Program-made: the position numbers and the translations under genes | Assembly (NCBI GenBank): GCA_938002085.1 | Contig: CALLAT010000079.1 | Location: forward strand, 945 to 64,944 | DNA length: 64,000 nt | Direction of reading: 5' to 3' | Origin: an uncultured Pseudanabaenaceae cyanobacterium | Lineage (GTDB): Bacteria > Cyanobacteriota > Cyanobacteriia > PCC-9006 > JAAUQQ01 | Notes under the pieces: model-generated | What the model saw: only the letters and a program-made list of their open reading frames with translations | What the model was told of the DNA's origin: nothing | Database searches by the model: none | Shown here: one piece after another, positions 745-23,355 of the stretch | Layout of the letters: each line of letters starts with the position of its first letter | Position numbering within the stretch: the stretch's first letter is position 1

Positions 745-1929
745 ATGGCTACAAGCCCCCTGCTCCAACCGCCCCGCCTTTGGGTGGGCGACAGCGCGGT
801 CGAACAACCTCGCCACGCCACTTGGCTGGAGCTGTTCTATGACCTCGTCTTTGTCGTCGCCATTTCCCAACTCGCCCACAAGCTCAGCGGCGACGTTAGT
901 CTGGGCGGCTTCCTCAGCTTTGTTGCCCTCTTCATTCCCCTCTGGTGGGCCTGGATTGGCACCACGTTTTACGCCAATCGCTTTGATAGCGATGACCTGG
1001 GCCGACGTATTCTCATGGGCTGCCAAATGCTGGCGATCGCCGCCCTAGCGGTCAATGTTCACCACGGCCTCGACAGCAGCTCCGGCGGTTTCGCCCTGGC
1101 CTATGCAGCCTCGCGGTTCATGCTGGTGCTGGAATATCTCTGGGCAGGCTTCAACATTCCCTCAGTTCGAAAACTCACAACCCCTACTGCCATTGGCTTT
1201 AGCTTTGGAGCTGGGCTATGGCTGCTATCGGCTTTTGTGCCTATGCCAATTCGCTTCAGCCTCTGGGCAATTGGTCTCGTCACGGACTTCCTCACCCCCC
1301 TGACTGTGCGAACTCAACTGAAAAAGTTTCCACCCCACGCCGAACACCTGCCGGAGCGCTTCGGCCTGTTCACCATCATCGTTCTGGGAGAGGCCATCAT
1401 TGCCGTGGTCAATGGCGTCTCGGAAATGGACTGGAGTCTGGCGAGTAGCTTCAGCGCCATAGCAGGCTTTGTCACAGCCTTCTCCCTTTGGTGGATCTAC
1501 TTCGATAACGTGTCTGGCTCAGTGTTCGAGCAGCAAAAACAAACTGGCGGAGGACTGAAGCGATCGCTGCTCTGGCTCTACATTCACCTGCCCCTGGTCA
1601 TTGGCTTGGCTGCCACAGGTGTCGGTGTAGAACATGTAATTGAAAGAGCCGGTCACCACGAACTCCTAACCAGTCCAGAGCGTTGGCTAATCTGCGGATG
1701 CGTGGCCCTTTGCTATGGCTGCTTGGCAGCGCTCCACAGAATGGGCATTATCTTTAGCTGCAAGGCTCGGACCAAACATCGTTTGGCTGGTCTAGGCGTA
1801 ATGTTGACCCTAGCAATCTTTGGTGCGGGCCTGTCTCCCCTAATGTTGATTAGCGCGATCGCCCTCGTAGGTCTCATCCAAGTCACTCTGGATATTTACC
1901 AAGGCAAGCCAGATTCATTCAAAGCTTGA
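745..1929 (+). CDS. LtrA-like (low temperature requirement A family) integral membrane protein
   Basis: 394-aa ORF with many hydrophobic helices. The N-terminal signature ATWLELFYDLVFVVAISQL is typical of the LtrA family. It has an ATG start and is followed by a hairpin terminator. Confidence 0.8.
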   Translation: MATSPLLQPPRLWVGDSAVEQPRHATWLELFYDLVFVVAISQLAHKLSGDVSLGGFLSFVALFIPLWWAWIGTTFYANRFDSDDLGRRILMGCQMLAIAALAVNVHHGLDSSSGGFALAYAASRFMLVLEYLWAGFNIPSVRKLTTPTAIGFSFGAGLWLLSAFVPMPIRFSLWAIGLVTDFLTPLTVRTQLKKFPPHAEHLPERFGLFTIIVLGEAIIAVVNGVSEMDWSLASSFSAIAGFVTAFSLWWIYFDNVSGSVFEQQKQTGGGLKRSLLWLYIHLPLVIGLAATGVGVEHVIERAGHHELLTSPERWLICGCVALCYGCLAALHRMGIIFSCKARTKHRLAGLGVMLTLAIFGAGLSPLMLISAIALVGLIQVTLDIYQGKPDSFKA

Positions 1930-2147: not shown

Positions 2148-2876
2148 ATGATTAATGCGGAAGAATATTGTCCTCCGGGCTCAGACAACTCAAGCAGGGA
2201 ACGCTATGGATATATCACTATCGTCACTACTCTGGCCTCTATTTGTCTTCTCTGCAAGTCCATGTCAGGTGCAGTAGTGCCATCTATACCCCCGAGTCAC
2301 ATACCCCCCATGAGTGCCCAAACTCTAGCTAACCAAGCGGAAGCAGATACCCAGTCCGAGTCCAGTTCGGTCCCAGGCCAATCCAGGGCCGAAGAAGCCA
2401 ATTTAGAAAAAGTCAGAGAGCTTCTATTTGGTAATCAGCTTCGCAGTAGTGACCAGCAATTCAAAGCACTCGAAACAGAACTGGCCTCCCTCAAGACAGA
2501 GTTTGAAGATCGATTAGAGCGACTTGAAGACATTGTCCACAAAGGGTTTGATTCCATCACTCAGCAAATTCAAGCAGAACGAGAAGACCGGAAAGCAGCG
2601 ATCGCCACCACTGAAACCTCCATACACTCCCTGGGAGAGAACGTCCAGCAAAAGCAGGCCCAGCTCGACCAGAAAATCGACAGCGAAACCCAAGCCGTCC
2701 TCCAGAAGATCCTGGATCATTCCAGTCAATTCACAGCAGCACTCGACCAAAAATCCCAAGACTTATTGCGGGACATCAACGAGGAGTCCAAGCGGCGTCA
2801 GCAGCAAGAGCGTGCCCACAATTCTCGTCTTTCCGCACTATTTGGGGAACTATCTGAACGTCTCCATGACGAGTAA
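2148..2876 (+). CDS. soluble coiled-coil protein, first gene of the GTPase operon; start uncertain
   Basis: A long heptad-like, Q/E/K/L-rich sequence (KALETELASLKTEFEDRLERLEDIV...). The first ~40-55 codons look non-coding, so internal Mets at MSGAVV or MSAQTL are more plausible starts. The next gene begins 45 nt downstream on the same strand. Confidence 0.6.
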   Translation: MINAEEYCPPGSDNSSRERYGYITIVTTLASICLLCKSMSGAVVPSIPPSHIPPMSAQTLANQAEADTQSESSSVPGQSRAEEANLEKVRELLFGNQLRSSDQQFKALETELASLKTEFEDRLERLEDIVHKGFDSITQQIQAEREDRKAAIATTETSIHSLGENVQQKQAQLDQKIDSETQAVLQKILDHSSQFTAALDQKSQDLLRDINEESKRRQQQERAHNSRLSALFGELSERLHDE

Positions 2877-2921
2877 TCGCTGACCACTCATTCCGATGCT
2901 CCCCGGTGTCAACTCAGGACT

Positions 2922-4715
2922 ATGGATAACTCTAAAACAGGTAGCCTTCCTCCTCCCGAGGATCAAATAGTCGAAGCAACAATGTCCCCGCCGACCTCCC
3001 AGGCTGGGATGAGTGAATTGCGGCGACTGCTATTTGGCGAAAAGCTAGAGAGTCTAAAACCCACCACCACTGTCAAAGCAGAAGCGGTGAGTGAAGTGTT
3101 GGCGGAGGCGATCGCCCAAAGCCATGCCCAATACTCCAAGAAGTTGACCCAGGCTGCCGTCCCTACAGTAGAGTCCGCAATTCAGACTTCTGTTGAGACC
3201 GATATCAATGTCCTCTCCGAAGCCCTGTTCCCCATCATTGGTCCCGCTACACGAAAATCCGTCGCGGCCGCCATTCGCAACCTGACCCAATCCTTCAACC
3301 AGGGATTAGAGCATAGCCTCTCGCCCCAAAGCTTTAAGTGGCGCTGGGAAGCCCGGCGCACCGGGCGATCCTTTGCCGAGGTCGTTCTGCTGCGCACCCT
3401 GGTCTACCAAGTAGAGCAGGTTCTGCTCATCCACAAAGAGACAGGTCTATTACTCCAGCAAGTTGTTTCTGAACAGGCCCAGAGCCAAGACCCAGACCTG
3501 GTCTCCGCCATGCTCACCGCCATCCAGGATTTTGTACAGGACTCCTTCAACGTCCAATCCGGTGGCTCCCTCGACACCCTCGAAGTGGGGGAAGTGAATA
3601 TCTGGATTGAGGCTGGCCCCCAAGCTGTATTGGCCTGTGTTATTCGCGGCAATGCTCCCCAAGAGTTGCGAGGTCAACTCCAAACCACCCTAGAACAAAT
3701 CCACCGAGCCTATGCCAGCCCGCTCAAGGATTTTGAAGGCGATCAAGAGGCATTTGGCAGCAGCCAAACCTACCTCCAGGACTGCCTCAAAGCTCAGTTC
3801 AAGACACGAGGAAACGGTCAGAAACAACGGCCCACAAAGTTACTCATCGGCCTGGGTTGCCTCACCCTGCTGTTGGGGGCCTGGCTCGGGCTCAGAATCA
3901 AGGCGGGCCAGCAATGGCAAGCCTACATTAACCAGCTAGAACAGGAACCGGGCCTCGTGGTCATCCAGCAAAAACGCCAGGGAGGCAAGTTCAAGCTATC
4001 GGGTCTCCAGGATCCCTTGGCTCAATCCCCAGATGCCCTATTAGCCCAAACCAAACTCAAGCCCGAGCAGGTCACCATGCGATGGGAGCCCTATCTCTCC
4101 CTCGATGATGCCTTCACCCTCAAGCGCTGGGAAGCCTGGCTAGAGCCACCTGACAGCGTGACGCTAAAGCTCGACCCAGACCAAGTCCTCCATCTTTCCG
4201 GCACGGCTCCTGTCAGTTGGATCAACTTCAGTCAGCGCCTTCTGGCTAAAGGAGGCGAAGGCCTCCGAGACTGGAATACTGAAGCGCTGATTCCCCAGGA
4301 ACAGCAGCAGCTCAAAGCCCTCCAGGAGCAAATCGAGCAGCGGTCGATTCTCTTTTCCCAGGGCAGCACCAATATTGAGGCCGGGCAGCAAGCCACTCTC
4401 CAAGCCCAGGGGGAAGACTTAGCTGAGGTGATGGCGATCGCCCAAGCCCTCGATCTAGAGGTTGGCCGCATCACCCTGGCTGGCTATAGCGACCCCAAAG
4501 GCGATCGCAAAGACAACCAAGACCTCAGCCAAGCCCGTGCCACCACCGTCCAGCAAGCCCTGATTCAACAGGGCATTCCGGCACCGCTGCTCCAGACCCA
4601 GGCCCTCGGCGAGAACCACCAGACAACCCCAGAGAATCCCCAAAATCGCCGCGTCTCCATCAGCATCGAGCTTCCTGAGCTAGAGACTCAGTCCCCAACT
4701 CCCCCAGCCCCTTAA
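2922..4715 (+). CDS. single-pass membrane protein with a cytoplasmic Roadblock/LC7-like domain and a periplasmic OmpA-like peptidoglycan-binding domain
   Basis: The C-terminus ...ITLAGYSDPKGDRKDNQDLSQARATTVQQALIQQGIP...NRRVSISI is a canonical OmpA/MotB C-terminal domain. One TM helix (LLIGLGCLTLLLGAWLGLRI) lies at aa ~306-326. Residues ~160-265 (VLLIHKETGLLLQQV...DLVSAMLTAIQDFV...VNIWIEAGPQAVLACVIRGNAP) have the beta-alpha-beta-beta-alpha pattern of Roadblock/LC7 (MglB-like) domains; this was judged by eye. Confidence 0.85.
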   Translation: MDNSKTGSLPPPEDQIVEATMSPPTSQAGMSELRRLLFGEKLESLKPTTTVKAEAVSEVLAEAIAQSHAQYSKKLTQAAVPTVESAIQTSVETDINVLSEALFPIIGPATRKSVAAAIRNLTQSFNQGLEHSLSPQSFKWRWEARRTGRSFAEVVLLRTLVYQVEQVLLIHKETGLLLQQVVSEQAQSQDPDLVSAMLTAIQDFVQDSFNVQSGGSLDTLEVGEVNIWIEAGPQAVLACVIRGNAPQELRGQLQTTLEQIHRAYASPLKDFEGDQEAFGSSQTYLQDCLKAQFKTRGNGQKQRPTKLLIGLGCLTLLLGAWLGLRIKAGQQWQAYINQLEQEPGLVVIQQKRQGGKFKLSGLQDPLAQSPDALLAQTKLKPEQVTMRWEPYLSLDDAFTLKRWEAWLEPPDSVTLKLDPDQVLHLSGTAPVSWINFSQRLLAKGGEGLRDWNTEALIPQEQQQLKALQEQIEQRSILFSQGSTNIEAGQQATLQAQGEDLAEVMAIAQALDLEVGRITLAGYSDPKGDRKDNQDLSQARATTVQQALIQQGIPAPLLQTQALGENHQTTPENPQNRRVSISIELPELETQSPTPPAP

Positions 4716-4720
4716 CCCCC

Positions 4721-5248
4721 ATGATTCAAAAGAAAGTCTGCATGGTGGGCTCCTTCGCCACCGGAAAAACCAGCCTCGTCGCCCGCTTCGTCAAGGGCAT
4801 CTATTCAGACAAATACCAAACCACCATCGGCGTCAAAATTGATAAGAAAGTCGTGGAAACAGGCCCCCAGCCCATGACACTGGTGCTGTGGGACATCTAC
4901 GGTGAAGACGAATTCCAAAACATTCGCATGTCTTATCTGCGCGGTGCCGCAGGCTATTTTTTGGTAGTCGATGGCACCCGGCGGGAAACCCTCGACATTG
5001 CCATTCAGCTCCAGGCCAAGGTCGAAGCCCATATCGGCCCTGTCCCCTTCATTGTGATGCTCAACAAATGTGATTTAGAGGAGAACTGGGAAGTCACTCC
5101 CGGCGACATTGATGACCTCCAGGCCAAAGGCTGGACCGTGCTCAAATCCAGTGCCAAGGAAAATGTTGCTGTCGAAACTGCCTTTAGCAAACTGGCGGAA
5201 CAGATGAGTCGCCCCCAGTCCAACTCAATCCCCTGGGAGGCGGCTTAA
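4721..5248 (+). CDS. Ras/Rab-like small GTPase (prokaryotic Ras-superfamily)
   Basis: All five G motifs are present in 175 aa: G1 GSFATGKTS, G2 YQTTIGV, G3 WDIYGED, G4 NKCD, G5 SAK. The start lies 5 nt after the upstream stop. Confidence 0.9.
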   Translation: MIQKKVCMVGSFATGKTSLVARFVKGIYSDKYQTTIGVKIDKKVVETGPQPMTLVLWDIYGEDEFQNIRMSYLRGAAGYFLVVDGTRRETLDIAIQLQAKVEAHIGPVPFIVMLNKCDLEENWEVTPGDIDDLQAKGWTVLKSSAKENVAVETAFSKLAEQMSRPQSNSIPWEAA

Positions 5249-6298
5249 ATGCTTACCCTACCCATCACCGTGGCTCAGCATTTAGGAGCTGCCACCACAG
5301 AGCAGCGATCGCCCGCACTCCTCAAGGTCACCCCTGACGGCAAGCTGATCTCCTGGGATGGAGACCTCCAGCAATATGGTCTAGCACAACTCCAGCCCCT
5401 AGAGCCCATCGTCAACCAGCTCTTCTTTTTAGACGGAATCTTTCCGCTCCAGCAAACCCGCGACGCCCTGCCTTGTTTGCAGACTAGCGATGGACTGGCG
5501 ATCGACGTTCATCTCTTTCGGGACGTCGAACATAGCTGGGTGCTACTGCTAGATGCCAGCGGCCAAACCGAGCAAACCACCCGCCTACAGCAAAAGGGAA
5601 ATGACCTCAGCCTGTTGCGCCACCAGTACAGCAAATTGCTCCATCGCTTCTTACAGCAAAGCCTCACCGAAGACCATACCCGCGACCTCCTCTCCCCCCG
5701 CTCATCCAGCAGAGAATCCCAGGCCCAAGAGCAAGACATTTGCGTCCTGCTAATCAAAATTTGTGAGGCCCATCCCCCAGCAGCAAGATCCAGCAGCACT
5801 GCCGCTCCGGAAGCCACAGAAGTACTCCAAACCTTCAATGCCTGTCTGTCCATCATCACCCAAATTGTGGTCGATGAAGGGGGCGTCCTCAATCACATTT
5901 TTGGCGAGACCGCCGTGGCTCTCTTTGGTCTGTTGCCGAGTCAACAAAAAGCCGCTGAACAAGCCGTCTACGCCGCCAAGCGGATGATTCAAAAGTTCCA
6001 GAATGTCACCCAAACCATGGGCCCGCTCCACAGGCCCCAACTTGGATTGGGCACAGGCATTACCACTGGAACCGCTGCATCTGCCATTGTTCGCACCCAG
6101 CACTACAGCGCCCTCAATGCAGTCGGCAACACCGTCCACCGGGCCATGCAGCTCACAGATATTCTCCAAGCCAATCAAATCCTCATTGATGAAGCCACGC
6201 TAGCCCAACTAGAACGGGGACAACAGTCTTTCTTTGGCTTTACGCCCCCCAAGGATCGCTTTGAGGAAGCACTCTATTTCCAGGCGGTGCATTCATGA
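5249..6298 (+). CDS. class III nucleotidyl-cyclase homology domain protein with every catalytic residue substituted (pseudo-cyclase)
   Basis: The C-terminal ~170 aa align by eye to the cyclase homology domain (VLLIKICEA / LNHIFGETAVALFG / LGLGTGITTGTA / AVGNTVHRAMQL / ILIDEAT). The start codon directly abuts the GTPase stop (TAA ATG). Confidence 0.75.
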   Translation: MLTLPITVAQHLGAATTEQRSPALLKVTPDGKLISWDGDLQQYGLAQLQPLEPIVNQLFFLDGIFPLQQTRDALPCLQTSDGLAIDVHLFRDVEHSWVLLLDASGQTEQTTRLQQKGNDLSLLRHQYSKLLHRFLQQSLTEDHTRDLLSPRSSSRESQAQEQDICVLLIKICEAHPPAARSSSTAAPEATEVLQTFNACLSIITQIVVDEGGVLNHIFGETAVALFGLLPSQQKAAEQAVYAAKRMIQKFQNVTQTMGPLHRPQLGLGTGITTGTAASAIVRTQHYSALNAVGNTVHRAMQLTDILQANQILIDEATLAQLERGQQSFFGFTPPKDRFEEALYFQAVHS

Positions 6299-8139
6299 GA
6301 AGCTCCATCCTCGAAAAAATTCTCTCCGCCCTCAAAATCCTGTCCCTGGAATGGACCCATCAGGAACACTTGACCCTGATTGGCAGCCCACCGCCCTGGG
6401 CCAGCCAGGAGTTTGATTGCATTGACCCATCCACACAATGCTTCGAAGCGGCAGAGTTTTCTCCCTTTCTAGAAAATTTTCTGTTTGATGCCCAAGAGTT
6501 CTGGCAGACAGACTCCAATGAATTTCTGCGCTCCGGCTTTTGGAGCGAAACCTTGGCATCGGGAGAGGAGATTAGTCTAGAAGCTGTGGCTCTCCATTTA
6601 GAAGGCCGCAAGATTATCCTGGTGGAATCCTCCGAAGCCAGCTACTCAGAGTCTTTCAAATGGCTCCAAACCGCTCGCCAGGAGCGCCTCAACTTCATCT
6701 CAGAGCGCAAGATCGCCACCACTCAACTGCTCAGCGCCACGTTTTACGATGCCCTCACAGGTCTACCCAATCAAGTCTTCTTTTCATCCCAGCTCAATCA
6801 AACCTTCGAGCACAATTCTCACACTACAAACCCACGGCAGGATTACAGCCCACCGCAACGTAAAGCCGATGCTGAGGTCAAAACTTTTGCGGTAGTGATG
6901 CTCAATATTGACCGTTTCACTACGCTCAACGATAGCCTGGGCCGAGAAATGGGCGATCGCCTCCTGATCGCCTTTGCCGAACGACTCCAAAGTAGCCTGC
7001 GCAAGCAGGACACTCCCGTTCGCTTTGGCTCCGACGAATTTGGCATTTTGCTTCGAGACATTACCAGCGCCAGCGAGCTAACGGCCACCGTCCAGCGCAT
7101 CACCGAAACCCTCAACCAACCCTTTAGCCTCAATCACCAAGAGCACCATATCTCCACCTCCGTAGGCGTCGCTCCGCACGGCAAAAACTACCACCATCCT
7201 CGGGATCTACTGCGCGATGCCAGCATTGCCCTTCACCAAGCCAAAGCCCTAGGACGCGGTCGCTACTTAGTCTTCGACCGAGCCATGCAGGCCAGGGCAT
7301 TAGAACTCTGGAGCCTAGAAAGCGACCTGCGCCGAGCCTTAAAACAGAATGAGCTCCAGGTGTTTTACCAACCCCTTGTGAACCTCAAAACCCACCGAGT
7401 AGATAGCTTTGAAGCCTTAGTCCGCTGGCAACACCCCAGCAAAGGCTGGATTGCCCCAGGGGAATTTGTCCCCATGGCTGAGGAAACAGGTCTCATCTTG
7501 GAGCTGGATGCCTGGGTACTCCAGCAAGCCTGCCAAGTCATCACCGCCTGGCAGAAAATGACGACAACTCCCATGACCGTCAACGTCAATCTATCGTCTC
7601 GCCATTTCAGCGAAACCAATCTGCTGGACAACGTGAAGCGCATCCTTCAAGCCAGCGAAACCCAAGCCCATAACCTCAAACTAGAGATTACCGAGAGCTT
7701 CCTGCTCGGCGATACCCAAGTGGCCACCCAAACCCTCAATCAACTGCGCAGCCTAGGCGTCAAGCTCAGCATTGATGACTTTGGCACCGGCTACGCCTCC
7801 TTGGGGTATCTCCAGGATTTACCCGTGGACAACCTCAAGATTGACGGCTATTTCATCGATACCATGGCCGAAAACAACGCCGAGATCGTCAACACCATCA
7901 TTACGCTGTCCCACAACCTGGGCATTGATGTCACCGCTGAGCGAGTCGAAACCTTAGCGCAATATCAGGAACTTCAGCGCCTGGGCTGCGATTACGCCCA
8001 GGGATTTCTCATTGCCCGGCCTCTCGCAGCGACCGAAGCAGCCAAGTTCATTAATCAAACCTTTGAGCATTTCCTGGCAGCTCCCAAGGCGCAGCCGAGC
8101 CAAGACTCTGCTCCCCCCAAGCTACCCACTGCCGCCTAG
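6295..8139 (+). CDS. GGDEF-EAL protein (c-di-GMP turnover) with an N-terminal sensory domain
   Basis: GGDEF domain features: YDALTGLPNQ and RKQDTPVRFGSDEFGILL. EAL domain features: FEALVRW, LEITES, DDFGTGYASLGYL, LKIDGYFI, YAQGF. It overlaps the upstream gene through an ATGA junction. Confidence 0.9.
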   Translation: MRSSILEKILSALKILSLEWTHQEHLTLIGSPPPWASQEFDCIDPSTQCFEAAEFSPFLENFLFDAQEFWQTDSNEFLRSGFWSETLASGEEISLEAVALHLEGRKIILVESSEASYSESFKWLQTARQERLNFISERKIATTQLLSATFYDALTGLPNQVFFSSQLNQTFEHNSHTTNPRQDYSPPQRKADAEVKTFAVVMLNIDRFTTLNDSLGREMGDRLLIAFAERLQSSLRKQDTPVRFGSDEFGILLRDITSASELTATVQRITETLNQPFSLNHQEHHISTSVGVAPHGKNYHHPRDLLRDASIALHQAKALGRGRYLVFDRAMQARALELWSLESDLRRALKQNELQVFYQPLVNLKTHRVDSFEALVRWQHPSKGWIAPGEFVPMAEETGLILELDAWVLQQACQVITAWQKMTTTPMTVNVNLSSRHFSETNLLDNVKRILQASETQAHNLKLEITESFLLGDTQVATQTLNQLRSLGVKLSIDDFGTGYASLGYLQDLPVDNLKIDGYFIDTMAENNAEIVNTIITLSHNLGIDVTAERVETLAQYQELQRLGCDYAQGFLIARPLAATEAAKFINQTFEHFLAAPKAQPSQDSAPPKLPTAA

Positions 8140-8355: not shown

Positions 8356-8913
8356 ATGATTATGCATCCGCCAATTCATACGCCGGCCCAAGAGCCTTGT
8401 GCGATCGTTCCGGTCCAGCCGGCCCATCTCACGGCCCCAACCGCCGCCCAGCCCCAATCGTTACCATCCGACCACCGCTACGGCCAACTGCACCAGCAAA
8501 CGCTCCAGCAAGGCCACAGCCTGTCGGCGAGTATTCACCAGCACACTCCCATTCTGGAGGCTGTGGGTGACCAGAGCATCCGTAGCTGGTACAACTGTCG
8601 GGAAGCTGCCAGCCTCACTCGCCAACAGGCCTTTGCAGCTGTAGATCGAGCCACAACGGTAGATCAAGAAATTGCTCAGCTCAATCGCAATATTCAGCTG
8701 CAGCTGCAGCAGTTTGACGCGCAACTCAAAACCTCTGGCCAGACCCTACGCCAGGAGGTGGCGCACAAGGTGGCGCAATACCACCGCCATGTGCAGCAGC
8801 AATCCAATCGCTGCCGCAATCGCTTGAACCTGGATGAGCATAATCAACCGGCCTGGACCTCAGCCCATCGCAACCAGGCCCAGCGACTGTTTCAATCCAC
8901 AACGCTGCATTAA
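8356..8913 (+). CDS. hypothetical Gln-rich protein
   Basis: A 185-aa ORF with an ATG start, a Q/H-rich sequence and a coiled-coil-like C-terminal half. I recognised no family. Confidence 0.4.
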   Translation: MIMHPPIHTPAQEPCAIVPVQPAHLTAPTAAQPQSLPSDHRYGQLHQQTLQQGHSLSASIHQHTPILEAVGDQSIRSWYNCREAASLTRQQAFAAVDRATTVDQEIAQLNRNIQLQLQQFDAQLKTSGQTLRQEVAHKVAQYHRHVQQQSNRCRNRLNLDEHNQPAWTSAHRNQAQRLFQSTTLH

Positions 8914-8924
8914 GTCAGCATCAG

Positions 8925-8964
8925 AAGGCTAGGTCTGGCTAGGTTTATAGCTTGGCCTAGCCTT
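8925..8964. terminator. hairpin between convergent genes (possible bidirectional terminator)
   Basis: A 9-bp stem AAGGCTAGG (8925-8933) / CCTAGCCTT (8956-8964) with a 22-nt loop. It sits between the convergent genes 8356-8913 (+) and 8957-10027 (-). There is no strong U tract. Confidence 0.35.
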
Positions 8965-10027
8965 CCTGTGATTCGTCAGAGGTCTTGCTTTGAGCTTCGG
9001 TAGGCAGCTTGCTTCGCAATCGCAATTTCAACAGCCCCCAGCCTCCTAAGGCCAGCACCACAGGCAGCGACAACCATTCTCCTGGCAAGCCCTGGGTGGT
9101 ACTAGCACTCATCTCAGGTTGATCCAGATAGCTCTCCTGGGCCTGCACCAACCTGGGCTCACCCATTACCACCTGATCGATATAGGCCCCATAGGCCGAA
9201 ACCCGAGTATCAAAAAAGTACTCACCAAAGCTCGTGTCATTCTCAAGCGTGACATCGATCCCCTCAACCTCTGGACTACTGCCACTGGACGAGAGGCCAG
9301 CCACTTTGCCATCAATAAAGGCTGGGCCACCGGAGTCACCCCCGCTAGAGCCAATCTCCTGGGCACCTAAGCCCAAATCGAGGAGGCCATATTCAATCCC
9401 CAAGGCATCATTTTGAGACCGCCCGCTATCGTAGTCGTACATCAATTGCTTGCCGGGCTGAATATAACTTTCGGGCTCGCCTTCTTCTTCGTTATACAAC
9501 TCACCTAAGGCTTCATAGCGGTTCTGCCCAGCACGCAGAACCATGGATTCATCCTCACTAAATTCCCCTTGCGCCCCCGTTGCCATCACGCCGTAGCCCA
9601 AACGGGTAAAGACTTGACCCACCTCATCGAACTCGCGGTACAGCTCATAGCGAGGTACCTCACGAGGCAAAACCTCCGCGAGATGAATGATGGCCAGATC
9701 ACCATTGAACCCATCTTGATCATCCCAATCGGGATGGATATCAATGTGGACTGGCTCCAGCGTCAATTCTGCCTGGGGCAACCGAAAGACCACGGTGACG
9801 GAATTTGGCTCTGGCTCCAGGGTTGGCTCACCATCCTGGGAATAGTCTTCAAAGCAGTGGGCAGCGGTCAAAATATGTTGACCACTGGTGAGCAAGGTCC
9901 CCGTACAGTTATCTCCGCCAGGCAAGAGAATTAAAGCCACACCGTCATAGCCCTGCCCTGGCAAGACCTCGTATGACGGATCACGAGGATTCGCAACAGG
10001 AACGGAAATGCCTAGGGGGAAAGTCAT
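8957..10027 (-). CDS. trypsin-like (S1 family) serine protease with a C-terminal membrane anchor
   Basis: The catalytic His motif LTAAHC, the catalytic Ser motif GGDSGGP and an Asp context (FNGDLAIIHL) are present. A hydrophobic C-terminal segment LSLPVVLALGGWGLL is followed by KLRLRSK. Confidence 0.85.
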   Translation of the reverse strand: MTFPLGISVPVANPRDPSYEVLPGQGYDGVALILLPGGDNCTGTLLTSGQHILTAAHCFEDYSQDGEPTLEPEPNSVTVVFRLPQAELTLEPVHIDIHPDWDDQDGFNGDLAIIHLAEVLPREVPRYELYREFDEVGQVFTRLGYGVMATGAQGEFSEDESMVLRAGQNRYEALGELYNEEEGEPESYIQPGKQLMYDYDSGRSQNDALGIEYGLLDLGLGAQEIGSSGGDSGGPAFIDGKVAGLSSSGSSPEVEGIDVTLENDTSFGEYFFDTRVSAYGAYIDQVVMGEPRLVQAQESYLDQPEMSASTTQGLPGEWLSLPVVLALGGWGLLKLRLRSKLPTEAQSKTSDESQEG

Positions 10028-10203: not shown

Positions 10204-10809
10204 CTACAAATTGCTGCTGTAACGTTCCTCAGCGAAGGGCTCCCCTCGCATGTGATAGCCATTCTTCTCCCAGAAGCCAGGTTGATCCTCAGCCAGGAAT
10301 TCCAGCGCTTGCAGCCATTTCCCGCTCTTCCAAGCATAAAGATGGGGCACAACTAAACGCAGCGGTCCACCATGCTCCGCAGTCAAAGGCTCACCGTAGA
10401 CGGTATGGGCAAGGAAGTTTTCAGGTCGAAGGAAGTCTTCCAGCAGCAGGTTGGTGGTGTAGCCACCGTAGCAATGCTGCATCACGGCAGTCGCTTCGGG
10501 CTGAAGCTCCACCTGGGCTATGAGATCCGTCACGCGCACCCCTCGCCAGGGCATATCCAGTTTGGACCAACGCGTCACGCAGTGAAAATCGATGTCAAAG
10601 TCCACCTGGGGTAGGGCCATGAGGTCATTCCAGGTGAAGGTTTTGGGCTGGGCCAGTCCCAGGATGTGCAGCTGCCATTGCTCCTGGGTGATGTGCTCAG
10701 TCTCTCCATAGGTCAACACCGGAAAGCCCTTCGCGAGGTTTTGGCCGGGGGGGACACGCGCCTTGAGGCTGTCGTCAGGCTTGCTGAAGTGCTTATAGTT
10801 CGGAGCCAT
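10204..10809 (-). CDS. sulfite-oxidase-family molybdopterin-binding oxidoreductase (small, single domain)
   Basis: The motif FHCVTRWSKLDMPWRGV and the overall ~200-aa length are typical of the oxidoreductase molybdopterin-binding domain. The ORF track starts at a TTG (10839), so I prefer the ATG at 10809 (MAPNYKHF...). Confidence 0.8.
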   Translation of the reverse strand: MAPNYKHFSKPDDSLKARVPPGQNLAKGFPVLTYGETEHITQEQWQLHILGLAQPKTFTWNDLMALPQVDFDIDFHCVTRWSKLDMPWRGVRVTDLIAQVELQPEATAVMQHCYGGYTTNLLLEDFLRPENFLAHTVYGEPLTAEHGGPLRLVVPHLYAWKSGKWLQALEFLAEDQPGFWEKNGYHMRGEPFAEERYSSNL

Positions 10810-11111
10810 GGGACTGAAGAATGGAAGGGTCGAAGGCAACGCTGTCTCTTGTCAGCGATTCCCTCAAGTTTATCGAATGGATTGATGGGCCTCCAGGAAA
10901 ATGCAGGCAAACGCATTGGGCCACGTTACAGCTTTGCGATGTTTAATTTGAATCAAGTTTCTCGGGTTCAGATTTTGCTATAACACAGTTATAAGACTGG
11001 TTTTAGCCGCCATGGGGCTCAAGTCCCTCACGACGGTTGAAACCTCAGGTCGCTATACTGCTTTCCTGCTGCTTAGTCTTCCAACTTCCTCCTCGATCAC
11101 CCACACCATTT

Positions 11112-13010
11112 ATGGGTCTTGCTGCTCCCCAGAGCCTAACCAGTCATGCGGCCCAGAGTCGACTAGAGCGTTTTTTGGGGCCGTTTAAGTCGCGGCTCTC
11201 CCAGCGCATTGTGCTGTCGGTCTTTACGAGCATTGTGGCGATCGAGACGATTATCCTTATTCCCTCTGTCTTTCGCCGGGAGGGGGAATTACTGGCCCAA
11301 TTATCTGAAATCTCCACAGCAACCCTGGTGGGAGCCATCGGCGAAGCCGATATGTCGATGGAAGAGATAGACCCGGCGGACCTACTGAGCTGGTTGAGCC
11401 GAGCCAAAGCGGTGGAAGCTGTGATAGGTGGGACGCTTTACACCATTGATGGCCAGCTCATTGGCAGTTTTGGAGATAAACCTCAGTTCAGCTATGCCCA
11501 AGCCACCAGCGGTTCTCCCAGCCTTGGCATTCGACAGTTCCTTGGGAGTTATCCCCAGGGAAAACGGTCTCGACTCTACCGAGCGAGCCAGCATTACGAT
11601 GCCGTTTGGGAAATGTCTCCCTTTGAAGATCAATATCTACTGATTGTTCGTCATGATTCCAGTGGCGTACGCGCTGAGCTAGTTTCCTTTGTTTGGCGCA
11701 TCTTTGGGCTGGTGATGCTCATTTCTGCGGTGGTGACCCTGGCCACCATGGTGGTGCTGCGCTCTATTTTGATTAAGCCTGTTTTGGCCCTGCGGAGTGA
11801 TTTGCTCAAGGCGGCTCCCGCTGCATTGCAAGAGGAAGGCGCGATCGCCCCACAATTCCTATCCCGTCGCTATAACCGAGGCGATGAATTAGGAGAGGTG
11901 ATCATAGCTTTTGGGGAGATGTTCGAGCGCATCTCCGGGACAATCGCCCAGCGTCGCCAGGCCGAGGGAGAACTGCGAGAAAGTGAGACTCGATTTCGCA
12001 CATTAGTTGAGCAAGCAACTGAAGCCATTTTTGTGGTCAATAGCCAGGGGCAAATTGTTGATTCCAATCAGTTTGCCAGAAATTATCTGGGCTACAGCAA
12101 GGAAGAGCTCAGCAATTTATGCCTATGGGACATCAACCAGAGGTTCGGCACCGATGAATTCCAACAGCTTTGGGCAAAGGTCCTCACCGGAGAACCCATC
12201 ACTGTAGAAAGCTGTCACCGTCGCAAGGATGGTTCTATTTTCCCAGTGGAGGTACGCATTGGCATGTTTGAGGCCGAGGGCGAGAAGCGCATGCTGGGCT
12301 TGGCAAGGGACATCAGCGCTCGCAAGGAGGCCGAGAAAGCCCAGGCGAGATTGGCGGAGATTGGTGAGCTGGCAGCCATGATTGTCCATGAGGTGCGTAA
12401 TCCTTTGGCCACGGTGTACATGGCCCTGACTGGCTTTAAGCGCATGGAACTGCCTCCGGCGGGGGAGCTGCGGCTGGAGATGGCTATGGAGGAGTCGGAG
12501 CGGTTGCAGCGGTTGCTGAATGAGATTTTGGCTTATTCGCGGGACCAGAAGCTGGCGGGTGAGGAGATTGAAGTGGGGGCTTTGGTGGCGGAGTTGCGGG
12601 AGTCGTTGCAGGGGTTGCCCATGGCGGCGGGGCGAGAAATTGTGGTTGCAACTGAGGGTGGGCAGTTGAGTGTGACGGGCGATCGCGACAAGCTCAAGCA
12701 AGTGTTCATTAACCTAGTCACCAATGCCTGCGAGGCCATTCCTGAGGGGGAAGTGGTGACCTGGAAACTTGAGCCCCAGCCAGACAATTGGATTAAGGTA
12801 CAGGTTCACAATGGCGGTGAGCCGATTCCGCCGGAGGTGTTGCCGAAGTTGACGCAGCCGTTTGTTTCGACGAAGTCTGGGGGCAATGGCCTGGGCCTAG
12901 CGATTACGAAGCGGATTGTGGAAGCCCATGGGGGGACGATGGCGATTGAATCAGATGCAGAACAGGGGACAAGAGTGACTGTTGTCTTGCCACAAGTTCA
13001 GACTTCATAG
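11112..13010 (+). CDS. membrane sensor histidine kinase (2 TM, PAS, HisKA, HATPase)
   Basis: H-box HEVRNPLATV, N/G boxes (NLVTNACEA, GGNGLGLAITKRIVEAHGG), a PAS-like segment (FRTLVEQATEAIFVVNSQGQIVDSN...) and two hydrophobic helices flanking a ~150-aa loop. The track start at 11037 is a TTG, and the first ATG is at 11112. Confidence 0.9.
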   Translation: MGLAAPQSLTSHAAQSRLERFLGPFKSRLSQRIVLSVFTSIVAIETIILIPSVFRREGELLAQLSEISTATLVGAIGEADMSMEEIDPADLLSWLSRAKAVEAVIGGTLYTIDGQLIGSFGDKPQFSYAQATSGSPSLGIRQFLGSYPQGKRSRLYRASQHYDAVWEMSPFEDQYLLIVRHDSSGVRAELVSFVWRIFGLVMLISAVVTLATMVVLRSILIKPVLALRSDLLKAAPAALQEEGAIAPQFLSRRYNRGDELGEVIIAFGEMFERISGTIAQRRQAEGELRESETRFRTLVEQATEAIFVVNSQGQIVDSNQFARNYLGYSKEELSNLCLWDINQRFGTDEFQQLWAKVLTGEPITVESCHRRKDGSIFPVEVRIGMFEAEGEKRMLGLARDISARKEAEKAQARLAEIGELAAMIVHEVRNPLATVYMALTGFKRMELPPAGELRLEMAMEESERLQRLLNEILAYSRDQKLAGEEIEVGALVAELRESLQGLPMAAGREIVVATEGGQLSVTGDRDKLKQVFINLVTNACEAIPEGEVVTWKLEPQPDNWIKVQVHNGGEPIPPEVLPKLTQPFVSTKSGGNGLGLAITKRIVEAHGGTMAIESDAEQGTRVTVVLPQVQTS

Positions 13011-19652: not shown

Positions 19653-21557
19653 ATGAAAGGTAAGGCGAGTACTCAGCAGCCTACCGTCCCATCCACCATG
19701 GTTTCCCCAGCAACGCCTGCCAAACCTGCCCTTGCCCAGTCTCCCTCTGCAACCCAAGGGGTTTCCATCGGAGTCAAGATTTTTGGCATTGCCACGAGTC
19801 TGCTGGGACTGATGCTGCTCGTCGTCTTCGTCTCCACCCATCGGCTGCGCAAGGTCAACGCCGAAATCACCGACCTGGCTCAGTACACCATTCCCATCAC
19901 CGATCGCGTCGCGCAAATCGATGTCCATGCCCTAGAACAAGAACTACACTTCGAGCGGGTCCTCAAACTCTACGAACAGGAACCGCTCGATCAGCGTCGC
20001 ATTCGCACCGAGGTGGCAGAGTTTGAAAAGCTAGACCAGCTGGTGAATCAAGAGTTGGCCGATGCGATCGCCCTAGCCAAAATCGCCATTGAAGAATCCA
20101 AACTCGAAAAAGATCAGGCCGAGTGGGAACAGATCACGCCCATGCTTGAAAGCATTGAGGCCCAACATCAACAGTTTCATGACCATGCCTTAGAAGTCTT
20201 AGCAGTGCTCCAAGCTGGGGACATGGATAAAGCCCATCAGCTGGAAGAACAAATCATTGTTGAGGAAACGAACTTTAACCAAGCCGTCAACGACCTCTTC
20301 CTAGAGCTCGAACAATTCACCGTAGAATCCGCTAAGTTGGGTCAGCAACATCAGCAAACCGTTCAAACGCTGAGCGTGGCCATTGCGCTGATTGCCACCG
20401 CCGTTGGATTGGTTTACGCCCAGCTGGTCAGCCAGGGATTAGTTAGGCCAGTGCGATCGCTCACGAAAGCCATGGCTGCCGTTCAAGCTGGAGATCTAGA
20501 TATTTCCCTCCCAGTGTCCAGCCGCGACGAAGTGGGAACGCTGGCTCGCAACTTCAACGCCATGGTCAAAGAACTCAGAACCAAAGTCCATCTCGAAGAA
20601 ACCTTTGGTAAATATGTTGACCCCCGCATTGTTCAATCCCTGATGGACAATGCCCCCACCACCCGGACTGAAGGCGATCGTCGGGTCATGACCGTGTTCT
20701 TCGCCGATGTCAAAGGCTTGGAGGCCGTTCTCTCTCGGTTGGAGCCTGAGGCTCAGGTCAACCTGATGAACCACTATTTGAACATCATGTCAGCACCCAT
20801 AACGGCCCATGATGGGGTGATCGACAAATTTATCGGCACGGTCATGATGGGCTTCTGGGGACCGCCCTTTTGTGATGCCCAGTGCCATGGTCAGCTGGCC
20901 TGCGAAGCCGCGTTAGAGCAAATCGAACGCCTTCGCCTGTTGCAGCAGCATATTCAAGAACTCACCGGAGAAGCCGCTCCCCTACATCTCCACATTGGCC
21001 TCTCCACTGGCAAACTCGTGGTCGGCAATATGGGCTCTGCCGCCGCCAAGTCCTACACCGTGATGGGCGACACCGTAAATACAGCCTCTCGCCTCAAAGG
21101 GGCCAGCCATCAATACGGCGTCACAGTGCTGATGAATGAAGCGACCCAGCAACAAGTCGCAGACACCATGGACACCCGAGAGCTGGATTTAATTCAGGTC
21201 GTTGGCAAGGAAGAGCCCGTGCGGATTTATGAGCTGCTGGGCCGCAAAGGTGACTTATCCGGTGACCAGCTAGAAGCCAAAACAGCATTTGAGGCAGGGC
21301 TACAGGCCTATCGGCAGCAACAGTGGTCCCTGGCTCGTGCCCAGTTTACCTATAGCCTGGCTTCTTCAGCCCGAGCAGCCTCGACAATCTCTGTCGCCTC
21401 TAAATCTCAAAAAATTGCGCCTACAACAGAAGTCTCTACCATCCCCACAGCCACGATTGAAACACCCGCAACATTGTACTTAGACCGCATCAGGCTTCTG
21501 GAAGCTCAGCCCCCTGGCGAGCAATGGGATGGAGTTTGGCAACTCACGCAAAAATAA
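19653..21557 (+). CDS. membrane class III adenylate/guanylate cyclase (2 TM, helical sensor, HAMP, CHD), C2-like residue set
   Basis: HAMP: RPVRSLTKAMAAVQAGDLDISLPVSSRDEVGTLARNFNAMVKEL. CHD: VMTVFFADVKG, IDKFIGTVMMGFWGPPF, HIGLSTGKLVVGNMG, SYTVMGDTVNTASRL, VVGKEEPVRIYEL. Confidence 0.9.
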   Translation: MKGKASTQQPTVPSTMVSPATPAKPALAQSPSATQGVSIGVKIFGIATSLLGLMLLVVFVSTHRLRKVNAEITDLAQYTIPITDRVAQIDVHALEQELHFERVLKLYEQEPLDQRRIRTEVAEFEKLDQLVNQELADAIALAKIAIEESKLEKDQAEWEQITPMLESIEAQHQQFHDHALEVLAVLQAGDMDKAHQLEEQIIVEETNFNQAVNDLFLELEQFTVESAKLGQQHQQTVQTLSVAIALIATAVGLVYAQLVSQGLVRPVRSLTKAMAAVQAGDLDISLPVSSRDEVGTLARNFNAMVKELRTKVHLEETFGKYVDPRIVQSLMDNAPTTRTEGDRRVMTVFFADVKGLEAVLSRLEPEAQVNLMNHYLNIMSAPITAHDGVIDKFIGTVMMGFWGPPFCDAQCHGQLACEAALEQIERLRLLQQHIQELTGEAAPLHLHIGLSTGKLVVGNMGSAAAKSYTVMGDTVNTASRLKGASHQYGVTVLMNEATQQQVADTMDTRELDLIQVVGKEEPVRIYELLGRKGDLSGDQLEAKTAFEAGLQAYRQQQWSLARAQFTYSLASSARAASTISVASKSQKIAPTTEVSTIPTATIETPATLYLDRIRLLEAQPPGEQWDGVWQLTQK

Positions 21558-21612
21558 CAGGCCCGACCATCAAGCAAATCAACAGTCCAACGAATCGGAG
21601 TCTTCCAGGGTG

Positions 21613-23355
21613 ATGCAACTTTCTACAAAATCTCGCTTCTCATTGCCCATCGGCATGAAGATCTTTGGCGTTGCAACCAGCATGTTGACCTTGTTGCTAG
21701 GTGTGACTTATCTGAGCCATCAGAACATCCGGGATGTGAACCATGAACTGATTGACATTGCTGATTACCTGGCTCCCCTCAACAAAAACCTAGCGGAGAT
21801 CAACGTTCACACCCTAGAACAGGAAATTCACTTTGAGCGCATGGCTCGCTACTACGCCATGGATGACGTGGATAAAGCCAAAATTGCAGCCGAAGCTGAA
21901 GCCTTTGCCCTGCTAGCGCTGAAGGTCACTGGGGAGATTTCCGCTGCGTTGAGCCTGGCAGAGGTGGCTGCCACCCAAAGTTATCTCCCCGAAGACCGGC
22001 AACAAGCAGCCCGGCTGCAAGCCTTTTTGGACATGTTGCAAACGGATCATCAGAGGCTGGAGAAGCTGAGCCGTCAAATTATGGGCAAGCTCGCTGCGGG
22101 TGATCTAGAGGGCGCACAGCGCTTGGATACTCAACTCGCTGAGTTTGAAGATGCCTTTGATGACCGGGTCCAAAAGATTTTATTCGAGCTCTCCGACTTC
22201 ATCGAGACCTCTGCACTGCGCTCCCAAGCCCATGAAGAACAGACCCTCCGCATGAGCTGGGGCTTGGCTGCGATCGCCAGCGCAGTGGGCCTGCTCTTTG
22301 CCTCCCTCGTCACCGCAGGTCTAATCCGCCCCGTGCGCCGACTGGTCGCCCAAACCCATGCCGTTGAGCAGGGCAATCTGGATGTGGAAGTCCCGATTCA
22401 TTCCGGCGATGAAGTGGGCCAGCTCAGCCAGTCCTTCAATGCCATGGTCCATGAGCTGCGAGAAAAGAAGCGGCTCAAGAGCACCTTTGGCCAATATGTA
22501 GACCCCCGCATTGTAGAGACGTTGGTGAAGCAACAGAAACGCCTCCAGACCCAGAGCAGCACTCAAAGCCAAATGATGACGCTGTTTTTCTCGGATATGG
22601 CTGGGTTTAGCAGCATCAGCGAACTGCTCACCCCAACGGGCCTAGTCACCCTCATCAATCAATATCTGACCCTAGCCTCGGCCCCCATCCAAGAGCACCA
22701 GGGCGTCATCAATCAGTTTATTGGCGATGCTGTCAGCGCCTTTTGGGGTGCTCCCTTTGTGGCCCCCGAAGACCATGCCAAGCTCGCCTGCTACGCTGCC
22801 CTAGAGCAATTTGATCAACTGACAAAACTGCGCCGAGCCTTGCCCGAAATCATGGGCATTCGCAAAGGCTTACCGGAGATCAACATCCGCATTGGCCTAG
22901 CCTCAGGCACCGTCGTGGCAGGCAATATCGGTTCAGATCATTCCAAGTCTTACACCGTCATGGGGCCAGCGGTGCAGATCGCGGAGACCTTGGAAGGGGC
23001 CAGCAAAATTTATGGAACGCGGATTTTGATGACGGCAACCACCAAGGAACTGGCTGGGGAGTCAATTGAAATCCGCGAGATTGATCAGATGGTGCTGAGC
23101 GAAGGGACAGAACCGGAGCCGATTTACGAACTATTGGGGATTACTGGCAGCACTGATGAGGGAGTTTTAGAGATGCGCGATCGCTTCCACACAGCCCTCG
23201 CCGCCTATCGCGCCCAGCAATGGGCGGAGGCCGAGACAAGCTTCCAGCTCTGTCTCCAGCAAATTCCTGATGACGGCCCATCCTGCTATTACCTGGCCCA
23301 GTTACAAGCGCATCGAGTCAAACTTCTGCCTGAGCCCGTAGACATGCTTGGCTAG
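21613..23355 (+). CDS. membrane class III cyclase paralog (2 TM, helical sensor, HAMP, CHD), C1-like residue set
   Basis: It has the same architecture as the upstream gene. CHD: MMTLFFSDMAGF, INQFIGDAVSAFWGAPF, RIGLASGTVVAGNIG, SYTVMGPAVQIAETLE. I prefer the ATG at 21613 (MQLSTK...); the track ORF start at 21529 would overlap the upstream gene. Confidence 0.9.
   Translation: MQLSTKSRFSLPIGMKIFGVATSMLTLLLGVTYLSHQNIRDVNHELIDIADYLAPLNKNLAEINVHTLEQEIHFERMARYYAMDDVDKAKIAAEAEAFALLALKVTGEISAALSLAEVAATQSYLPEDRQQAARLQAFLDMLQTDHQRLEKLSRQIMGKLAAGDLEGAQRLDTQLAEFEDAFDDRVQKILFELSDFIETSALRSQAHEEQTLRMSWGLAAIASAVGLLFASLVTAGLIRPVRRLVAQTHAVEQGNLDVEVPIHSGDEVGQLSQSFNAMVHELREKKRLKSTFGQYVDPRIVETLVKQQKRLQTQSSTQSQMMTLFFSDMAGFSSISELLTPTGLVTLINQYLTLASAPIQEHQGVINQFIGDAVSAFWGAPFVAPEDHAKLACYAALEQFDQLTKLRRALPEIMGIRKGLPEINIRIGLASGTVVAGNIGSDHSKSYTVMGPAVQIAETLEGASKIYGTRILMTATTKELAGESIEIREIDQMVLSEGTEPEPIYELLGITGSTDEGVLEMRDRFHTALAAYRAQQWAEAETSFQLCLQQIPDDGPSCYYLAQLQAHRVKLLPEPVDMLG

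Follow-up and report, generated by a model that had tools for sequence, protein, structure and literature searches.

A Group 1 Rup small-GTPase locus from a Pseudanabaenaceae cyanobacterium with a predicted Roadblock/longin domain in its cell-wall-anchored DUFX protein and a probable c-di-GMP phosphodiesterase output

The prokaryotic Ras-superfamily GTPases have been split into the MglA and Rup families (Wuichet & Søgaard-Andersen 2014, Genome Biol Evol 7:57; PMC4316618). Group 1 Rup was defined in that study by genome comparison and proposed to be a membrane signalling system, in which the rup gene is accompanied by genes for a coiled-coil protein (DUFY), a DUFX-TM-OmpA protein (TM, transmembrane) and an output protein, either GGDEF-EAL or histidine kinase, with an invariant Gln in its N-terminal part (PMC4316618). 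The Group 1 Rup proteins are without the catalytic Gln of the G3 motif, which the authors speculated could be supplied in trans, and their phylogeny shows lineage-wise monophyly, consistent with vertical inheritance (PMC4316618). Here we analysed a 64,000-nucleotide stretch of DNA, hereafter the window, from an uncultured Pseudanabaenaceae cyanobacterium (assembly GCA_938002085.1, contig CALLAT010000079.1), and established that a block of five genes within it, g1 to g5, is a member of this Group 1 Rup system. The DUFX protein of the block is predicted to contain a Roadblock/longin-type domain for docking the GTPase, and it is reasonable to suggest, with moderate confidence, that the system as a whole works as a cell-wall-anchored GTPase switch controlling an output protein.

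The block is made of five open reading frames (ORFs) on the + strand, g1 (2148-2876), g2 (2922-4715), g3 (4721-5248), g4 (5249-6298) and g5 (6295-8139), with intergenic gaps of 45, 5, 0 and -4 nt. Its features are given below in window coordinates, g4N and g5N being the conserved N-terminal domains of g4 and g5.

2310..2876, + strand: g1, coiled-coil protein DUFY (ORF, no TM segment, weak coiled-coil-type matches, upstream of g2 in 73 loci)
2394..2456, + strand: g1 N-terminal motif (alignment and loose regular expression)
2922..4715, + strand: g2, bitopic DUFX:OmpA protein (ORF, Pfam OmpA, TM segment, AlphaFold2 (AF2) and Foldseek, 6,032 family representatives)
3000..3062, + strand: g2 N-terminal motif E-L-x-x-L-R-x-L-L-x-G (conserved columns)
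3159..3371, + strand: most conserved segment of g2, aa 80-150 (invariant columns)
3372..3710, + strand: predicted Roadblock/longin-superfamily domain of g2, aa 151-263 (AF2, Foldseek)
3834..3899, + strand: single TM helix of g2, aa 305-326 (Kyte-Doolittle)
3906..4292, + strand: periplasmic module of g2, aa ~329-457 (repeat unit in relatives)
4350..4652, + strand: OmpA-like peptidoglycan-binding domain of g2, aa 477-577 (Pfam PF00691, motif)
4721..5248, + strand: g3, Group 1 Rup GTPase, 175 aa (Pfam Ras, family alignment, PDB relatives)
5249..5674, + strand: g4N, predicted PAS-like domain with a long C-terminal helix (AF2, Foldseek)
5726..6223, + strand: degenerate class III cyclase-homology domain of g4 (Pfam, PDB 2W01, residue alignment)
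6295..6714, + strand: g5N, conserved N-terminal input domain (family alignment)
6742..7260, + strand: GGDEF domain of g5, degenerate A-site (Pfam 2.2e-38, motifs)
7324..8022, + strand: EAL domain of g5, catalytic motifs present (Pfam 3.5e-74, NCBIfam, motifs)

The components and their order are identical to those described in 2014. A GTPase without the G3 Gln adjoins DUFY, DUFX-TM-OmpA and an output protein whose domain g5N corresponds, judged by alignment, to the 'N-term with invariant Gln' of that description, and the block is homologous to a listed member. A locus from Acaryochloris marina MBIC11017 (L040) has DUFY, DUFX:OmpA and Rup in this order, a 163-aa Rup, a g4 made of g4N and a cyclase domain, and a g5 made of g5N and GGDEF-EAL, as in the window, and its GTPase is 62% identical to g3. 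Table S2 of the 2014 paper lists AM1_2998 of the same strain as '<Rup<DUFX:OmpA<DUFY, 163 aa' (PMC4316618); from the genome, the gene order and the Rup length we infer that L040 is the AM1_2998 locus, and this match establishes the membership of the window. The combination had been regarded as undescribed in the earlier note on this DNA, which was made from the letters alone, whereas the same neighbourhood had already been defined as Group 1 Rup (PMC4316618). The window nevertheless differs from the 2014 description in two respects: DUFX, of unknown function there, has here a predicted Roadblock/longin domain, and the four components there are joined here by a fifth gene encoding the PAS-like g4N, with an added dead cyclase domain in the window. 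In the literature searched, later papers cite Rup in passing as 'of unknown function' or as the prokaryotic group closest to Rab/Rho/Ras/Ran, none of the Table S2 locus tags turned up, searches for a protein combining Roadblock and OmpA domains gave passing Rup citations only, and no experimental study of any Group 1 Rup member was found.

The genes are tightly packed. The stop and start codons of g2 and g3 are separated by five nucleotides (TAA, ccccc, ATG; 4713-4723), those of g3 and g4 abut as TAA-ATG at 5246-5251, and those of g4 and g5 overlap as ATGA at 6295-6298, all read from the sequence. The operon-like packing claimed in the earlier note was thereby confirmed in its coordinates, gaps and junctions, and its domain assignments for all five proteins were borne out by Pfam, PDB, AF2/Foldseek and the TM scan. 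A Shine-Dalgarno-like GGAGG at 5236-5240, within the 3′ end of the GTPase gene, stands 8 nt before the g4 ATG and is consistent with coupled translation. A promoter scan found no sigma-70-like promoter inside the block against 2.9 expected by chance, and a terminator scan of the block gave nothing convincing, which is compatible with a single transcript without being proof of one.

The arrangement is also widely conserved. The family occurs in at least 561 species genomes, and the part of g2 outside the OmpA domain gave 6,032 clusters at 50% identity (E ≤ 1e-3). Experimentally tractable hosts of the system include Nostoc punctiforme (Npun_F1891 region), Anabaena PCC 7120 and Acaryochloris. Synteny was examined in the best 80 of the at least 561 loci from species-representative genomes, with ORFs searched by the window proteins split into domains. 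These 80 loci are mostly cyanobacterial, with others from Acidobacteriota, Sericytochromatia, Thermodesulfobacteriota and Gemmatimonadales. The order g1-g2-g3-g4N-g5N is complete in 48 of them, the remaining ones being mostly truncated by contig ends, so that the expectation of a conserved gene neighbourhood held across cyanobacteria, Acidobacteriota and other phyla. The gap between rup and g4N has a median of 0 nt and is 0 or less in 50/62 loci. Moreover, in one locus (L007, 12323-14557) g4N is fused to g5N-GGDEF-EAL in a single 744-aa protein, and in another (P0251/L081, 6001-8316) g4N is joined to the N-terminal end of the g2-type OmpA protein and no separate g4N gene follows rup; these two fusions speak for a single complex in which g2, g4N and g5N act together. 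That the five genes are mere neighbours without any functional link is extremely improbable, as the same order with tight or overlapping junctions across phyla and the two independent component fusions effectively refute it. The five genes are thus a tightly packed, widely conserved unit and a real operon. Variants of the arrangement were also seen. In L081 a kinase gene is followed by that of an NtrC-type sigma-54 regulator, one Coleofasciculaceae genome (L027; 4588-7657 and 9178-13564) has two adjacent Rup systems that are paralogous, of which one includes a cyclase-fused g4 that looks catalytically competent, and a Blastocatellia locus (L073, 11780-12909) has two tandem rup genes.

The central membrane component, g2 (597 aa), is a bitopic inner-membrane protein, in which a cytoplasmic conserved region and the Roadblock/longin-like domain are followed by a TM helix, a periplasmic module and the OmpA domain. 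The OmpA domain at aa 477-577 matched Pfam PF00691 with E 1.1e-13 (51.8 bits against a cutoff of 27.2), and its translation contains the peptidoglycan-binding motif N-x-x-L-S-x-x-R-A as NQDLSQARA. The TM helix at aa 305-326 is the sole segment exceeding 1.6 among all five proteins in a 19-residue Kyte-Doolittle window (maximum 1.89), and a basic stretch just before it points to an N-in orientation. The periplasmic module between them is a repeat unit of about 110-130 aa, present in 145 family representatives as one copy in 94, two in 30, three in 13 and four to seven in 7. It could be a spacer spanning the periplasm or a sensor. Neither this module nor the N-terminus of g2 had a significant Pfam or PDB sequence match, and a BON-like fold suggested by eye for the module was dropped, the Pfam and PDB sequence searches having given it no support.

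The cytoplasmic part of g2 is where a contact with the GTPase is predicted. In the AF2 model, built on an 85-sequence alignment, aa 151-263 adopt an alpha-beta-beta-alpha-beta-beta-beta-alpha order with predicted local distance difference test (pLDDT) scores of 80-96, the elements in model numbering being helix 124-132, strands 136-144 and 150-155, helix 164-181, strands 192-195, 198-204 and 208-215, and helix 220-236. All of the top 50 Foldseek matches in the PDB are entries containing longin or Roadblock proteins, with listed E-values from 8e-5 to 8e-3. They include Mon1-Ccz1 (5LDD, 8e-5), Sec22b with the highest TM-score (TMt 0.78) and MglB (3T12_C, 4.7e-3), and further AP sigma subunits, C-terminal domains of GATOR1/Rag, Fuzzy-Inturned, LAMTOR and an Asgard Roadblock3. 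The Pfam profile Robl_LC7 did not match g2 at E ≤ 1. The Roadblock/LC7-like domain that had been proposed at about aa 160-265 therefore stands at the level of the fold, by AF2 and by Foldseek matches including MglB 3T12, and finds no counterpart in a Pfam Robl_LC7 sequence match. Since MglB, Ragulator and the longin RabGEFs (GEF, guanine nucleotide exchange factor) use this fold as their platform for small GTPases, the cytoplasmic part of g2 is predicted from the model to have a Roadblock/longin-type GTPase-docking domain. Rup proteins were not predicted to interact with MglB homologues in 2014 (PMC4316618), presumably because no sequence profile detects this domain. N-terminal to the Roadblock-like core, aa 80-150 are the most conserved stretch of g2 (PTVE..AI..S, FPxIGPxTRK, QSLNQxLExSLS and WRxEAxxTG), which AF2 modelled as helices at low confidence (pLDDT 50-68) and for which Pfam gave no match.

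Still further upstream, g2 has an N-terminal motif in which L33 is invariant and R34 and L36 are at least 90% conserved. It resembles the N-terminal motif L-x-K-V-R-x-I/L-L-x-G-x-Q of g1, as compared by a loose regular expression over 74 g1 and 81 g2 homologues. In the window the common pattern [LV]R-x-[LI]L-x-G reads KVRELLFG in g1 (2394-2456) and ELRRLLFG in g2 (3000-3062). The shared motif may be a common docking peptide. The protein g1 itself, whose homologue is immediately upstream of g2 in 73 loci, showed no TM segment by Kyte-Doolittle, and its coiled-coil character comes from weak family matches and the published description. Its start is probably Met55 (nt 2310) and not 2148, in keeping with the start of the closest homologue (L001) and with a family length of about 200 aa; homologues have no counterpart to the 54 codons at the 5′ end of the longest g1 ORF (window 2148-2309).

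Between rup and the output gene, g4N is a fifth conserved component beyond the four of the 2014 description. In most loci its homologue stands alone, as a protein of about 130 aa matching the N-terminal 140 residues of g4. A word-indexed search with the single sequence returned no relatives, which were found only with a profile query, and no Pfam or PDB sequence match was obtained, the PAS profile included. The AF2 model (pLDDT 76.5) has a five-stranded antiparallel sheet with intervening helices, and Foldseek matched it to a phytochrome PAS domain (4e-4), the Rv1364c PAS domain and the PAS-like domain of FlrB/VC2136 (E 4e-4 to 5e-3), so that g4N is predicted to be a PAS-like domain. Near-invariant Q114, Q115 and N118 (QQxxN) lie on its long C-terminal helix. 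The idea of g4N as a second Roadblock domain was rejected in favour of this PAS-like assignment; a kinship of g4N or g5N with the Roadblock-like region of g2 was rejected as well (hhalign probability at most 0.3%), as was a paralogy between g4N and g5N, both of which end in QK-type helix motifs, at the sequence level (nothing by BLASTP, 0.3% by hhalign).

In the window, g4N is followed by a cyclase-homology domain at aa 160-325, for which the Pfam Guanylate_cyc match is marginal (22.2 bits against a cutoff of 21.9) and is backed by PDB sequence matches to cyanobacterial class III cyclases (2W01, E 2e-7). Relative to 2W01, GD has become GE and VNxxxR has become VHxxxQ; the cyclase domains of L027 and L061 retain FADIxGFT, GD and VNxAAR. 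Where these two keep the two metal-binding Asp and the transition-state Asn and Arg, the window protein has K, E, H and Q. The pseudo-cyclase call of the earlier note, with D to K, D to E, N to H and R to Q at the catalytic positions, was thus correct, and by its residues the domain is catalytically dead. Judging from its distribution, with a cyclase domain in 10 of 64 g4N-containing proteins and a PAS domain instead in the acidobacterial versions, the cyclase domain is a lineage-specific add-on, and some cyclase-fused g4 copies look catalytically competent by their motifs. Elsewhere in the window, an ORF at 21484-23352 (+) has weak similarity (E 1.4e-4) to this domain and is probably an unrelated cyclase-domain protein.

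The output protein g5 combines g5N with a GGDEF domain (aa 150-322, Pfam 2.2e-38) and an EAL domain (aa 344-576, Pfam 3.5e-74). The invariant residues of g5N are W35, F62, W70, S80, A97, Q125, R128 and L132, with Q125 invariant in 42 sequences; no Pfam or PDB sequence match was obtained for this domain, and no relation to g4N or g2 was detectable. The GGDEF A-site is degenerate, reading GSDEF at aa 245, and the RxxD I-site is kept as RKQD. The EAL domain has EALVR and DDFGTG, found by regular expression, and VNVNLS, LEITES, KIDG, ERVE and QGF, read from the translation, and g5 matches NCBIfam phosphodiesterase families. Taken together, these motifs make g5 most likely an active cyclic di-GMP (c-di-GMP) phosphodiesterase. 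Phosphodiesterases of the GGDEF-EAL type with a regulatory, degenerate GGDEF domain exist, such as Caulobacter PdeA/CC3396. The window protein is alike in having an intact EAL domain after a non-canonical A-site, and it differs in its input, which here is the Rup-associated g5N. Across the family, g5N carries a histidine kinase at about 56-58 loci (two hybrid kinases among them), GGDEF-EAL in 8/67 and a sigma-54 activator in one. With GGDEF-EAL on 8/67 g5 homologues against a histidine kinase on most, the c-di-GMP output in the window is a minority variant. The earlier emphasis on two nucleotide-second-messenger effectors therefore describes this locus and not the family, in which the cyclase occurs in 10/64 and GGDEF-EAL in 8/67, and it is the N-terminal domains of g4 and g5 that are conserved.

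The GTPase g3 matched Pfam Ras with E 1.5e-29 and has the motifs G1 GSFATGKT, G2 T (in YQTTIGV), G3 WDIYGE, G4 NKCD and G5 SAK. Phe occupies the position of Ras Gly12, and Glu replaces the catalytic Gln61, a Q to E change seen in the alignment with Rab23. This G3 Glu is nearly invariant in 31 GTPase homologues, and an aromatic residue stands at the Gly12 position across most of the family. The best PDB relatives are Rab23 (2e-23), Rab32 and Rab3B. Rab23 and Rab32 are substrates of tri-longin GEFs, and it is suggestive that these nearest solved relatives of Rup, as found by sequence, are paired with matches of the modelled g2 domain that include relatives of their tri-longin GEFs.

Substitutions of Ras at 12 and 61 abolish hydrolysis stimulated by GTPase-activating proteins (GAPs), and both positions are replaced family-wide in Rup (aromatic at Gly12, Glu at Gln61). 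This raises the main rival to a cycling switch, namely that Rup is a hydrolysis-deficient and constitutively GTP-bound adaptor, or a sensor of GTP level, like Rnd/RhoE, regulated by g2 assembly or expression, with the Gln residues of g4N and g5N being structural. It would fit that the conserved Gln and Asn sit on a long helix after a PAS-like core, the usual place of a signalling helix. Nevertheless, Rap is also without Gln61 and yet is cycled by RapGAP via an Asn supplied in trans (cited in PMC4316618). Q125 and R128 of g5N are invariant whether the output is a histidine kinase, GGDEF-EAL or a sigma-54 activator, which fits a shared contact with Rup, and a Roadblock/longin platform fits regulated cycling. 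We therefore see the static, GTP-bound adaptor as an unlikely account, and favour regulated cycling of Rup.

Among other described systems, MglA-MglB of Myxococcus and Thermus is alike in that the gene of a small Ras-superfamily GTPase adjoins that of a protein with a Roadblock-type fold. MglA has TVPGQ or GTPGQ as G3, and Group 1 MglA also has an intrinsic Arg next to the G2 Thr (PMC4316618). The window GTPase has WDIxGE as G3 and YQTTIGV without Arg as G2, so that the Rup signature DxxGE is set against TVPGQ with its Arg finger. The similarity of g2 to MglB is at the level of the fold only, and its Roadblock-like domain is part of a 597-aa wall-anchored membrane protein, whereas MglB is a small soluble dimer. 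The pairing of a Ras-like GTPase with a Roadblock-type fold and a MotB/OmpA-type wall anchor could suggest that the module is mainly a regulator of cell polarity or surface motility like MglA/MglB, with wall-anchored g2 placing the GTPase at machinery for motility or secretion and with c-di-GMP or kinase signalling being secondary. c-di-GMP commonly controls motility. Many hosts glide or twitch (filamentous cyanobacteria, Flavobacteria, Chloroflexus, Sorangium; Table S2). The GTPase is, however, of Rup type (DxxGE) and not of MglA type (TVPGQ/GTPGQ), the neighbourhood has no conserved motility genes and its conserved downstream partners are classical signal-output modules, and the system is also found in Alteromonas, Marinomonas and Nitrospira (Table S2, PMC4316618). 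A primary role in motility thus seems quite doubtful, less probable even than the static adaptor, and a signalling switch with an interchangeable output is preferred.

The actinobacterial conservon (CvnA-D/Mfp: sensor kinase, Roadblock protein, DUF742 and MglA-like GTPase) is alike in combining a membrane sensor, a Roadblock fold, a GTPase and two-component-type signalling, an analogy already drawn in the 2014 paper (PMC4316618). It differs in its GTPase family and in the DUF742 component, which is absent here; the membrane part here is an OmpA-anchored scaffold and not a kinase, and the kinase or phosphodiesterase is soluble and encoded downstream. In structure, the g2 domain comes closest to the eukaryotic longin/Roadblock platforms (Mon1-Ccz1, Fuzzy-Inturned, Ragulator, GATOR1), to which the likeness is at fold level only, with 10-17% identity and no support for GEF activity or common descent.

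The wall anchor and the cyclase domain also gave matches to defence proteins, with PADLOC reporting ZorB for g2 (through its MotB/OmpA domain, E 2e-9) and PycC, the cyclase of Pycsar, for g4 (E 2e-8), as would be expected if the block were an anti-phage or conflict system with MotB-like and cyclase-like proteins acting as in Zorya or Pycsar. These matches, however, cover the generic OmpA and cyclase domains only, the ZorA partner is absent, and the cyclase domain is dead here and missing from most family members. Published vertical inheritance (PMC4316618), fixed synteny in hundreds of species and housekeeping-type flanks are also unlike typical defence islands. As a set, the genes were rejected as a PADLOC system, g5 having no match and g1 and g3 only marginal ones to LeoA or ZorA (E 1e-3 to 6e-3), and a defence role is very improbable.

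For the favoured cell-wall-anchored switch, the following course of signalling may be proposed. Protein g2 would be fixed to peptidoglycan, and its periplasmic module would probably report a property of the envelope. The Roadblock/longin domain of g2, probably as a dimer, would together with g1 recruit Rup and regulate its nucleotide state, and Rup-GTP would bind the input domains g4N and g5N. The RapGAP Asn thumb, carried on a helix, serves Rap in trans, and g4N or g5N may in the same way supply a Gln or Asn to Rup for GTP hydrolysis. The output domain would then be switched, which would be c-di-GMP hydrolysis by EAL here and a histidine kinase in most relatives, with the degenerate GGDEF and dead cyclase domains as possible regulatory or dimerisation modules. 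A GTPase control of local c-di-GMP turnover, as proposed in the earlier note, is plausible. A more far-reaching proposal is that Group 1 Rup is regulated by a membrane-anchored longin/Roadblock platform in DUFX, that Rab-like GTPases were paired with longin/Roadblock GEF or GAP platforms before eukaryotes arose, the bacterial form of the pair being an envelope-to-cytoplasm signalling device, and that g4N and g5N supply the missing Gln or Asn in trans. In this full form, we put it forward as a speculative proposal with a rather low chance of being right.

Several points weigh against the switch and the platform. The Roadblock call comes from a predicted model whose Foldseek E-values are modest (1e-4 to 1e-2) and which no sequence profile backs, and the top-conserved aa 80-150 of g2 sit outside this domain and are poorly modelled, so that the element contacting the GTPase may be elsewhere. 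Replacement of both the Gly12 and the Gln61 equivalent may leave Rup unable to cycle altogether. In g4N and g5N the conserved Gln residues sit on helices between PAS-like cores and outputs and could be structural residues of signalling helices, and about 12/74 loci are without g4N, which is therefore not essential everywhere. Finally, all interactions among the components are inferred from gene order and fusions, with no experiments found on any member.

The genes around the block are not conserved with it. They encode an LtrA-family membrane protein upstream (window 745-1929, +), and a trypsin-like protease with a hydrophobic C-terminal tail (8957-10027, -), a molybdopterin oxidoreductase-domain protein (10204-10839, -) and a PAS histidine kinase (11037-13010, +) downstream. 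An ORF directly downstream of the operon (g6, 8356-8913, +) encodes a Gln-rich, coiled-coil-like protein of 185 aa; it was rejected as a sixth component, being kept only in the closest relative (L001).

Group 1 Rup is widespread, and its members are cited as the nearest prokaryotic kin of eukaryotic Rab/Ras/Rho/Ran. The present analysis adds to the 2014 description a predicted fold for DUFX, a fifth, PAS-like component and the fusions, which together make the system testable, as they specify binding partners, candidate trans-catalytic residues (Q125 and R128 of g5N; Q114, Q115 and N118 of g4N) and a measurable output in the EAL phosphodiesterase. If the model holds, the system would represent a new bacterial coupling of the state of the wall and envelope to c-di-GMP and two-component signalling via a Ras-like switch, and it would bear on the origin of the longin/Roadblock regulation of eukaryotic small GTPases.

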